DNA of 64,000 bases. It comes from Escherichia coli O157:H7 (GTDB lineage Bacteria > Pseudomonadota > Gammaproteobacteria > Enterobacterales > Enterobacteriaceae). Location: assembly GCF_013167455.1 (NCBI RefSeq), contig NZ_CP038328.1. One strand, given 5' to 3'. The notes beneath the pieces are model-generated. The model was not told where the DNA came from, did not search any database, and was given only the letters and a program-made list of their open reading frames with translations. Numbering within the stretch: position 1 is the first letter of the stretch; the number at the start of each line of letters is the position of its first letter. Below, one piece after another: positions 58,109 to 59,431 of this stretch. Both the position numbers and the translations under genes were made by a program.

Positions 58109-59431
58109 ATGGCAGTAAAGATTTCAGGTGTACTGAAAGACGGCACAGGAAAACCGGTAGAGAACTGCACCATTCAACTGAAAGCCAGACGGACCAGCAG
58201 CACGGTGGTGGTGAACACGGTGGCCTCTGAAAATCCGGATGAAGTCGGTCGTTACAGCATGGACGTTGAGTACGGTCAGTACAGCGTCATTCTGTTGGTG
58301 GAGGGCTTCCCGCCGTCACATGCCGGGACCATCACCGTGTATGAAGATTCTCAACCGGGGACGCTGAATGATTTTCTCGGTGCCATGTCGGAGGATGACG
58401 TCCGGCCGGAGGCACTGCGTCGTTTTGAACTGATGGTGGAAGAAGCGGCGCGTCACGCTGAGGAGGCGAAGAAGAATGCCGGAGAGGCGGAGACATCAGC
58501 GAGGAATGCCGGCATATCATCCAGTAAGGCGGAAGCGAGCGCGGCAAATGCTGACACTTCAGCAGGGGATGCATTGGAGTCAGCCCGGCAGGCGGCAGAA
58601 AGTGCAGCCGCTGCAAAGCAGTCAGAGGATGCGTCCTCGTCCTCGGCTTCTGCGGCCGCTCAAAAAGCCAGTGAGTCATCACAAAGTGCAGCAGAAGCTG
58701 AATTGTCAAGAAAGACGGCAGAAAGTGCAGCCGGTAATGCAGCCAGGGATGCAACGACCGCAACAGAAAAAGCCCGGGAGTCAGCAGAAAGCGCACAGTC
58801 AGCGGAACAAAGCAGGATAGCGGCGGAAGAGGCCGTAAACCGAATCCCCACCGTGGTGGGACCTCCCGGGCCAAAGGGGGAACAGGGGCCCGCGGGTCCT
58901 CAGGGGCCGAAGGGTGATAAGGGAGAGCGCGGTGACACCGGCCCTGTCGGGGCAACCGGCGAACGGGGACCGGCAGGTGATGCTGGTCCGGCAGGCCCGC
59001 AGGGGCCGAAAGGTGACAGGGGAGAGCGGGGAGAGACCGGTCTGACGGGAAATGCAGGTCCACAGGGTCCAAAGGGAGATACCGGTACGGCAGGCCCGGC
59101 AGGCCCGGCAGGCCCACAGGGACCGAAAGGAGAAACAGGTGTGGCTGGCCCGGTAGGGGCAACCGGACCTCAGGGGCCGAAGGGCGACCCGGGAGAGACG
59201 CAAATACGGTTCCGTCTGGGGTCGGGAAACATTATTGAGACAAACAGCAATGGCTGGTTCCCGGATACAGATGGCGCACTCATCACCGGACTGACCTTTC
59301 TTGACCCCAAAGATGCCACACGGGTTCAGGGGTTTTTTCAGCATTTGCAGGTCAGATTTGGCGACGGGCCGTGGCAGGATGTCAAGGGGATGGATGAAGT
59401 GGGCAGTGATACAGGCAGAACAGGAGAATGA
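58109..59431 (+). CDS. stf: Side tail fiber (Stf-like) with a long collagen-like Gly-X-Y repeat region
   Basis: N-terminus [26 protein letters not shown]... matches lambda stf; then about 110 residues of GPxGPxG triplets ([27 protein letters not shown]...). Confidence 0.75.

Follow-up and report, generated by a model that had tools for sequence, protein, structure and literature searches.

A collagen-stalked side tail fibre of EPclA architecture in a lambdoid prophage of Escherichia coli O157:H7, and the in-frame length variation of its stalk

The 64,000-nucleotide stretch of Escherichia coli O157:H7 DNA analysed here (contig NZ_CP038328.1 of assembly GCF_013167455.1; hereafter the window) carries, towards its right-hand end, a gene for a phage tail fibre with a long collagen-like stalk. 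We consider it highly probable (about 0.9) that the gene encodes the trimeric side, or lateral, tail fibre of a lambda-like O157:H7 prophage with the EPclA architecture, in which the domains PfN, PCoil, Col and PfC follow one another (Ghosh et al. 2012, PLoS One 7:e37872, PMC3368898). Collagen-stalked side tail fibres of the EPclA type have already been described, and the first-pass annotation that drew attention to the locus was correct but ordinary.

The window is from an E. coli O157:H7 lambdoid prophage, and the gene order in the RefSeq annotation is that of a lambdoid tail module: tape measure, L, a K-like gene (peptidase), I (tail assembly protein), J, which carries the full gpJ domain set, lom and then the fibre gene. 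The first-pass annotation had called a tail fibre of 440 aa. The open reading frame (ORF) was recovered on the plus strand, at exactly the coordinates given, in the ORF list and its translation, and the tail-fibre identity is upheld by the order of the tail module together with an N-terminus like that of the lambda side tail fibre Stf, the collagen tract and a small C-terminal domain. RefSeq annotates the product as a ‘prophage tail fiber N-terminal domain-containing protein’ (WP_000279065.1), and it matches PHROG 366, ‘tail fiber protein’, with E 6.6e-148. Strain ECP19-598 of E. coli O157:H7 has a chromosomal region 100% identical to 58109-59702, which spans the fibre gene and a small downstream gene. 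The annotation of that strain places the fibre gene after an Ail/Lom outer-membrane protein, and then lists a ‘phage tail fiber C-terminal domain-containing protein’ of 89 aa, three DUF1076 genes (NleG-family type III effectors by Pfam), uspF, ompN and nifJ. The fibre gene is present at a coverage of at least 80% in 692 of 5426 complete E. coli genomes. Copies with 95-97% protein identity occur in many genomes of Stx1a- and Stx2a-converting long-tailed phages, including VT1-Sakai, which is Sakai prophage Sp15. An exact-sequence look-up in a collection of 15 billion proteins returned no cluster for the 440-aa sequence, though it is present in RefSeq.

The N-terminal region ties the protein to the phage tail. 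It scores 228 bits against the PF08400 profile, for which the cut-off is 26.6, and residues 1-93 align without gaps to the collar domain of lambda Stf (9E7M/9MGH) at ~91% identity (9E7M chain Ta, E 1.2e-52), so that the lambda-stf-like N-terminus proposed earlier is well founded. Judged from this homology, residues 1-93 probably correspond to the tail-docking collar domain, and the remainder of PfN would start a helical rod. In the phage Ur-lambda, 12 collar domains ring the gpV-gpM junction, three per trimeric fibre, and the Stf fibres project outward and contact OmpC before J meets LamB (PMC12617516). As each three collar domains are linked to one trimeric fibre, the Ur-lambda virion has four such fibres.

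PfN is separated from the collagen tract by ~116-128 residues rich in Ala, Ser and Glu. The 128 residues from aa 118 to 245 include 42 Ala, 24 Ser and 18 Glu but no more than five that are Leu, Ile, Val, Met or Phe. A short linker, NRIPTVV, closes this PCoil region just before the collagen. The first-pass annotation had the collagen follow the lambda-stf-like N-terminus; both elements are present, but they do not adjoin, and the intervening coiled coil had been overlooked. The collagen begins at aa 251 here and in 44 of the 46 intact relatives in a sample from IMG/VR, which consisted of the 80 best matches to the query, gave 79 related loci and is skewed to close relatives.

The collagen tract is exceptionally regular. 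Glycine occupies the first position in all 38 triplets, X is proline in half of them (19 of 38), Y is usually one of Ala, Thr, Lys and Gln, and the most frequent triplets are GPK (six), GPA (five) and GPQ (five). The tract matches PF01391 with E 2.4e-18, and no other run of three or more triplets exists in the protein. Thirty-eight glycines in strict register cannot be attributed to chance. The earlier estimate of about 110 residues of near-perfect triplets was right about the tract and slightly short about its extent and quality, as it comprises 114 residues and is perfect. At 0.288 nm per residue, the value used by Ghosh et al. (PMC3368898), the tract would measure ~33 nm and a single triplet ~0.86 nm.

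Beyond the collagen, 76 residues remain, which confirms the small C-terminal domain noted before; 11 residues lie between the end of the PfC match to PF06820 and the stop codon. Searches of the PfC profile against PDB sequences gave only chance matches, with E above 0.01. The structure prediction that had been recommended for this domain was run, and an AlphaFold2 monomer model obtained from an alignment with 14 more diverse sequences, among them distant PfC-like modules, reached a mean predicted local distance difference test score (pLDDT) of 88.6 and a predicted TM-score (pTM) of 0.69; the authors of the phi24B structure report no confident AlphaFold model of PfC (bioRxiv 10.64898/2026.04.10.717836). 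Our model consists of three long β strands and contains no helix, in agreement with published circular dichroism (CD) measurements in which PfC has little or no helix (PMC3368898). A Foldseek search of the PDB with this model found nothing meaningful. A comparison with predicted viral structures gave, in its top 15 matches, eight proteins named as tail fibres, one named YomR and six without a name, with TM-scores of 0.57-0.67 on the query. The model and its matches provide moderate evidence that PfC is a tail-fibre β module.

The PfC family is very narrow. An exhaustive profile search recovered only 88 representatives, almost all of them Escherichia fragments and chimeras; it also yielded two divergent members with a single domain and a metagenomic protein of 565 aa. 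The latter (P0279) contains four tandem repeats of ~85 aa whose C-terminal halves are PfC-like (VVVLDAD…ILRVRRADGTW), with collagen after them, which suggests that PfC-like modules may be strung in series outside Escherichia. Multi-stretch matches to long CarboxypepD_reg and SprB repeat proteins were set aside as sums of weak matches to unrelated β-repeat families rather than homologues.

The fibre thus contains the four elements by which EPclA proteins are recognised, namely PfN, a low-complexity PCoil, a single uninterrupted collagen run and PfC. Recombinant EPclA from Sakai (rEPclA) is a trimer by size-exclusion chromatography with multi-angle laser light scattering (SEC-MALLS), and in CD its collagen melts at 42 °C and its coiled coil at 52 °C (PMC3368898). 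By the same two techniques, its PCoil segment was shown to be a coiled coil of three chains (PMC3368898). Rotary shadowing shows it as a dumbbell with a hinged stalk, and PfC trimerises and re-nucleates the collagen helix (PMC3368898). The trimeric state, the collagen and coiled-coil conformation, the dumbbell shape, trimerisation by PfC and a location at the tail are therefore documented for close homologues, and by similarity to them we infer a trimer with collagen and coiled-coil conformation and a dumbbell shape for the fibre described here.

On this basis, three chains would join through the C-terminal PfC and the Ala/Ser-rich coiled coil, with PfC nucleating the zipping of the 38-triplet collagen helix. 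The product would be a dumbbell with a hinged stalk of ~50 nm (~17-19 nm of coiled coil plus 33 nm of collagen), bearing the trio of N-terminal collar domains at one end and, at the other, a small knob of β-structured PfC. The collar domains would dock round the tail at the junction of tube and tip in the manner of lambda Stf, an arrangement that would place four such fibres on each virion. The distal PfC knob could then make the first, reversible contact with a putative cell-surface receptor and so speed adsorption ahead of the binding of the central J fibre to its own receptor. Within this account the domain content, the repeat count, the way in which length changes, the homology of the collar domain and, as a monomer model, the β fold of PfC come from the present analysis; the geometry of attachment on this phage, the binding of a receptor by PfC and any functional effect of stalk length are inferred.

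Stalk length varies among relatives by whole triplets. The first-pass annotation had suggested that repeat number might tune fibre length and had proposed a comparison across related prophages, regarding an invariant number as evidence against the idea. In that comparison, clusters of proteins that share the architecture and a C-terminus of unvarying length (76 aa) contain 4-38 triplets, with variation in coiled-coil length as well, and Ghosh et al. list collagen domains of 63-144 residues (PMC3368898); since the number varies, the objection does not apply. The observed triplet range corresponds to roughly 3.5 to 33 nm of stalk. Of the 46 intact IMG/VR genes, 38 carry 37 triplets; three have 27 and two have 38, and lengths of 36, 32 and 15 triplets occur once each. 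A further 13 IMG/VR copies, from a total of ~60 related loci, are frameshifted, truncated or fused.

The junctions between alleles reveal how the length changes. The window allele contains three units of the 9-bp sequence CGGCAGGCC, whereas alignment shows two in VT1-Sakai and in an O111 prophage, and the third unit accounts for a length of 440 aa instead of the common 437 aa. Relative to the window allele, four shorter alleles lack 54, 99, 207 and 270 nt, in each case without loss of frame, and the end points of these deletions fall within 8-17 nt shared between two sites of the tract (for example CGGCAGGCCCG, GGGGCAACCGG and CCTCAGGGGCCGAAGGG); two other allele comparisons (L056 and L065) were too diverged for the junctions to be placed. 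Such junctions are the signature of slippage or recombination between internal direct repeats, which arise from the recurring GPQ-GPK-G(D/E) motif. Stalk length therefore shifts by whole triplets through slippage of the 9-bp array and deletion between short direct repeats.

Whether this length is functionally tuned or merely tolerated is, in our judgement, a matter of about even odds. The neutral explanation, to which we give half of the weight, holds that variation is a by-product of recombination-prone repeats, all lengths working equally well or the short alleles being steps in prophage decay. The dominance of 37 triplets (38 of the 46 intact genes and most copies in Sakai and EDL933) fits this explanation, as does the difference of a single triplet in the window allele, ~0.86 nm on a 33-nm stalk; however, the IMG/VR sample is skewed to the closest relatives of the query, and 19, 15 and 8 triplets recur across many distinct protein clusters. 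Likewise, the deletions bear the mark of slippage or illegitimate recombination at repeats of 8-20 nt and frameshifted copies are common in the same IMG/VR set, but all of the length variants examined are in frame and retain an intact 76-aa C-terminus, which argues for selection for a working fibre.

Several points weigh against the assignment of the protein as a receptor-contacting side tail fibre. No receptor of PfC is known, and our literature search found none for this type of fibre. The PfC model is that of a monomer of what would be an obligate trimer and does not warrant over-interpretation, and the first AlphaFold2 monomer model, built on an alignment of eight sequences, was unusable at a pLDDT of 53.6. 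The phi24B authors describe the function of the conserved lateral fibres as an open question and report that the related lambda_2B8 fibres do not recognise BamA (bioRxiv 10.64898/2026.04.10.717836). The frameshifted or truncated copies in 13 of the ~60 related loci indicate that resident prophages can often do without the gene.

An alternative is a virion component whose tip, instead of binding a bacterial receptor, holds the phage to something in its surroundings, such as mucus or the capsid itself, as raised for phi24B. In that phage the gp61 tips point towards the capsid, and the authors consider a flexible collagen shaft unable to transmit a triggering signal (bioRxiv 10.64898/2026.04.10.717836); the failure to find a receptor to date is in keeping with such a role. 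However, phi24B is a podovirus whose EPclB fibre mounts on a different adaptor, whereas the homologous Stf on a lambda-type tail projects outward and binds OmpC first (PMC12617516), and the structures nearest to PfC are modules of tail fibres. We therefore regard this alternative as unlikely. A bacterial role, in which the protein would serve the cell as a collagen-like adhesin on its surface or as a virulence factor, carried as prophage cargo in the manner of streptococcal Scl or Bacillus BclA, is very improbable: collagen-like proteins of Gram-positive pathogens do bind host matrix and cells, the adhesin option was left open by Ghosh et al. (PMC3368898) and the neighbouring lom and three NleG effector genes are lysogenic-conversion cargo, but the N-terminus is no signal peptide and instead has the collar domain with which lambda Stf binds proteins of the phage tail, a terminator-like hairpin parts the fibre gene from lom, the known expression of these collagen-like proteins is tied to phage induction and their homologues are structural virion parts.

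The side tail fibre gene is followed directly by a gene for an 89-aa free-standing paralogue of PfC, which the first-pass annotation had also overlooked. The protein opens with 27 residues that include an LCGCGK motif and continues as a PfC domain at aa 28-89 that is 35% identical to the fibre's own, and it belongs to phrog_576, ‘tail fiber protein’. The junction ACAGGAGAATGACATGAA between the two genes is identical in every locus listed whose fibre gene ends in ...TGE. To judge from the overlap of the AGGAG Shine-Dalgarno sequence with the last fibre codons, 6 nt before the ATG, the small gene is probably translationally coupled to the fibre gene. The ORF is intact in 44 of the 45 assessable related loci. 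The ratio of non-synonymous to synonymous polymorphism (pN/pS), calculated from four diverged copies in non-independent pairs, is ~0.09 for its PfC, against 0.30 for the fibre PfC and 0.12 for PfN, which is evidence that the paralogue may be under purifying selection.

Its equivalent in Sp5, ORF68, is non-essential and without a frameshift signal, and it has been suggested to be a reservoir for variation of the C-terminus (Mondal et al., PMC5155283). Other readings of the locus were rejected. The paralogue occupies the position of tfa, yet its sole Pfam match is PF06820, with no Tfa or Caudo_TAP domain, and it is homologous to the fibre tip. Inspection ruled out a lipoprotein signal in its N-terminus, MNILKKLMQRLCGCGK, because the sequence has no hydrophobic core. 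Invertase-type switching of the C-terminus, as in Mu and P1, was excluded because no invertase gene is annotated within 9 kb on either flank.

A programmed frameshift from the fibre into the 89-aa ORF was also considered. A G4T6 run lies at 59329-59338 within the fibre PfC (PfC-1), and 1-nt indels there (P0008, P0009 and L034) shift translation into the open +1 frame (ORF 59301-59702), so that the fibre and the 89-aa ORF become fused. The counterpart of the run in VT1-Sakai is GGGGCTGTTTC. We rejected programmed frameshifting in view of the lack of conservation of the run, the rarity of fusions and the failure of Mondal et al. to find a signal (PMC5155283); because the run is not conserved, the fusions look like mutations, homopolymer indels or sequencing errors. 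Database entries also contain chimeras that join collagen to the PfC of the paralogue (PfC-2; P0195), PfC-2 to the second half of PfC-1 (P0255), and J or Lom to PfC-2 (P0203 and P0228), with several junctions at or near ...ADILESDENG. These chimeras may be products of real recombination between prophage copies, deletion remnants of prophage decay, or assembly or sequencing errors.

Given the signs of selection and the translational coupling, an expressed protein is more likely than a silent cassette. A more specific proposal is that the 89-aa protein is a working partner of the fibre, either as a separately translated trimer that would cover the PfC tip or take its place, altering receptor specificity or helping the fibre to fold, or as a resident cassette whose recombination with the 3′ end of the fibre gene would change specificity. 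The coupling, the near-universal integrity of the ORF, its low pN/pS and the natural chimeras are consistent with a partnership, which we nevertheless hold only tentatively and consider doubtful.

The features of the locus are collected in Table 1.

Table 1 Features of the fibre locus in window coordinates
Feature	Position	Strand	Basis
Side tail fibre gene, EPclA architecture	58109..59431	+	ATG start, TGA stop, 440 aa; ORF list and translation
PfN domain, aa 1-133	58109..58507	+	PF08400, E 3.1e-68
Ala/Ser-rich coiled coil (PCoil)	58508..58858	+	Composition; 116-aa length as in the tables of Ghosh et al.
Collagen tract (Col), 38 uninterrupted Gly-X-Y triplets, aa 251-364	58859..59200	+	Triplet count; PF01391
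Perfect tandem array of 9-bp units, 3.1 copies, encoding GPA-GPA-GPA	59088..59115	+	Tandem Repeats Finder
PfC domain, aa 366-429, putative receptor-binding tip and trimerisation domain	59204..59395	+	PF06820, E 6.3e-34
Shine-Dalgarno sequence AGGAG of the 89-aa gene, inside the last fibre codons	59422..59426	+	Sequence reading
89-aa free-standing PfC paralogue, starting 1 nt after the fibre stop	59433..59702	+	PF06820, E 1.1e-36
Terminator-like hairpin and T-run in the gap between lom and the fibre start	58071..58098 (hairpin 58071-58092)	+	Consensus scan, pattern match only
Two long antisense ORFs, spanning 58332..59593	58332..59162 (276 aa); 58799..59593 (264 aa)	-	ORF list

The long spurious ORFs on both strands that the first-pass annotation had attributed to the repeats are indeed present, as the two antisense ORFs in the table and a further overlapping ORF of 114 aa on the plus strand (58476..58820). 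None of the three has a Pfam match or a RefSeq annotation. The collagen DNA is 71% G+C, and stop codons are absent from two of the three frames antisense to it, which accounts for these overlapping ORFs. The long antisense ORFs are by-products of the stop-poor coding sequence of the collagen and coiled coil, not genes.

The hairpin upstream of the fibre gene has an 8-bp stem with seven G-C pairs, is followed by TTTTTT and has its end 16 nt before the start codon. A second terminator-like hairpin with a T-run lies at 57396-57415 (+), and the pair brackets lom (57445-58044), so that lom resembles a cassette insulated from J on one side and from the fibre gene on the other. On the other side, directly 3′ of the tail-fibre genes and at the end of the prophage that adjoins uspF and ompN, stand three tandem genes of NleG-family type III effectors (PF06416, E 1e-43 to 1e-47) at 59815-60390, 60463-61092 and 61174-61815 (+). 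A relative from O111:H8 has nleH and cif in place of the NleG genes. The chromosomal porin gene ompN beside the prophage is annotated as frameshifted (L001, 13863-14976, past window position 62971).

Shiga toxin and effector genes pass between E. coli strains on the lambdoid and Stx-converting phages that bear fibres of the EPclA type, and the receptor of the fibre and its contribution to host range bear on the rise of new lineages of enterohaemorrhagic E. coli (EHEC). The present analysis makes modest additions, namely a junction-level account of collagen length change, a confident monomer model of PfC and evidence for purifying selection on the PfC paralogue.

Among known systems, the tail fibre S′ of Mu (gp52, 8JU3) shares no detectable sequence homology with the fibre and resembles it weakly, in one β module of a far larger fibre; the Mu fibre has no collagen and binds lipopolysaccharide. 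The lambda Stf protein is 774 aa long and depends on a downstream chaperone, Tfa. The fibre described here resembles lambda Stf (P03764; 9E7M/9MGH) in the collar at residues 1-93, in the Ala/Ser-rich trimeric helical rod that comes next and in the gene site after lom, but lambda Stf has no collagen and ends in a gp37-like coiled coil and an OmpC-binding domain. A Pfam search of the fibre and the 89-aa protein detected neither PF03406 (Pf2) nor a Tfa family, so that the distal hallmarks of lambda Stf, namely Pf2 repeats, a gp37-like region and a downstream Tfa, give way to collagen and PfC.

The likeness to EPclB (933W L0121, Sp5 ORF67/ECs1228 and phi24B gp61) is closer, extending from PfN, coiled coil, collagen and PfC to the 89-aa PfC-only gene that follows (Sp5 ORF68). 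EPclB has been located at the Sp5 tail by immuno-electron microscopy and is essential there (PMC5155283), and cryo-electron microscopy shows that it forms six lateral fibres on phi24B (bioRxiv 10.64898/2026.04.10.717836). Unlike the fibre of the window, EPclB is 645 aa long, has two collagen tracts parted by a Pf2 repeat, uses a podovirus tail adaptor and is present as six fibres per virion.

The closest counterparts are the EPclA proteins (ECs2717 and ECs2941 of Sakai and ECO26_1634 of O26:H11), which share the order of domains, the 116-aa PCoil, the triplet preferences and the gene site after J and lom. Sakai and EDL933 each carry seven to nine EPclA genes per genome, and most EPclA proteins are 437 aa long, PCoil accounting for 116 residues and Col for 111 (PMC3368898). 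The VT1-Sakai copy is of this length and 95.5% identical to the fibre, and ECO26_1634 has the same lengths of 440, 116 and 114 residues for protein, PCoil and Col. The differences from EPclA are allelic only, consisting of one more GPA triplet than in the usual 437-aa O157 copies and point differences of a few percent. The locus is thus no new kind of object, but one more allele of a family that was characterised biochemically in 2012.

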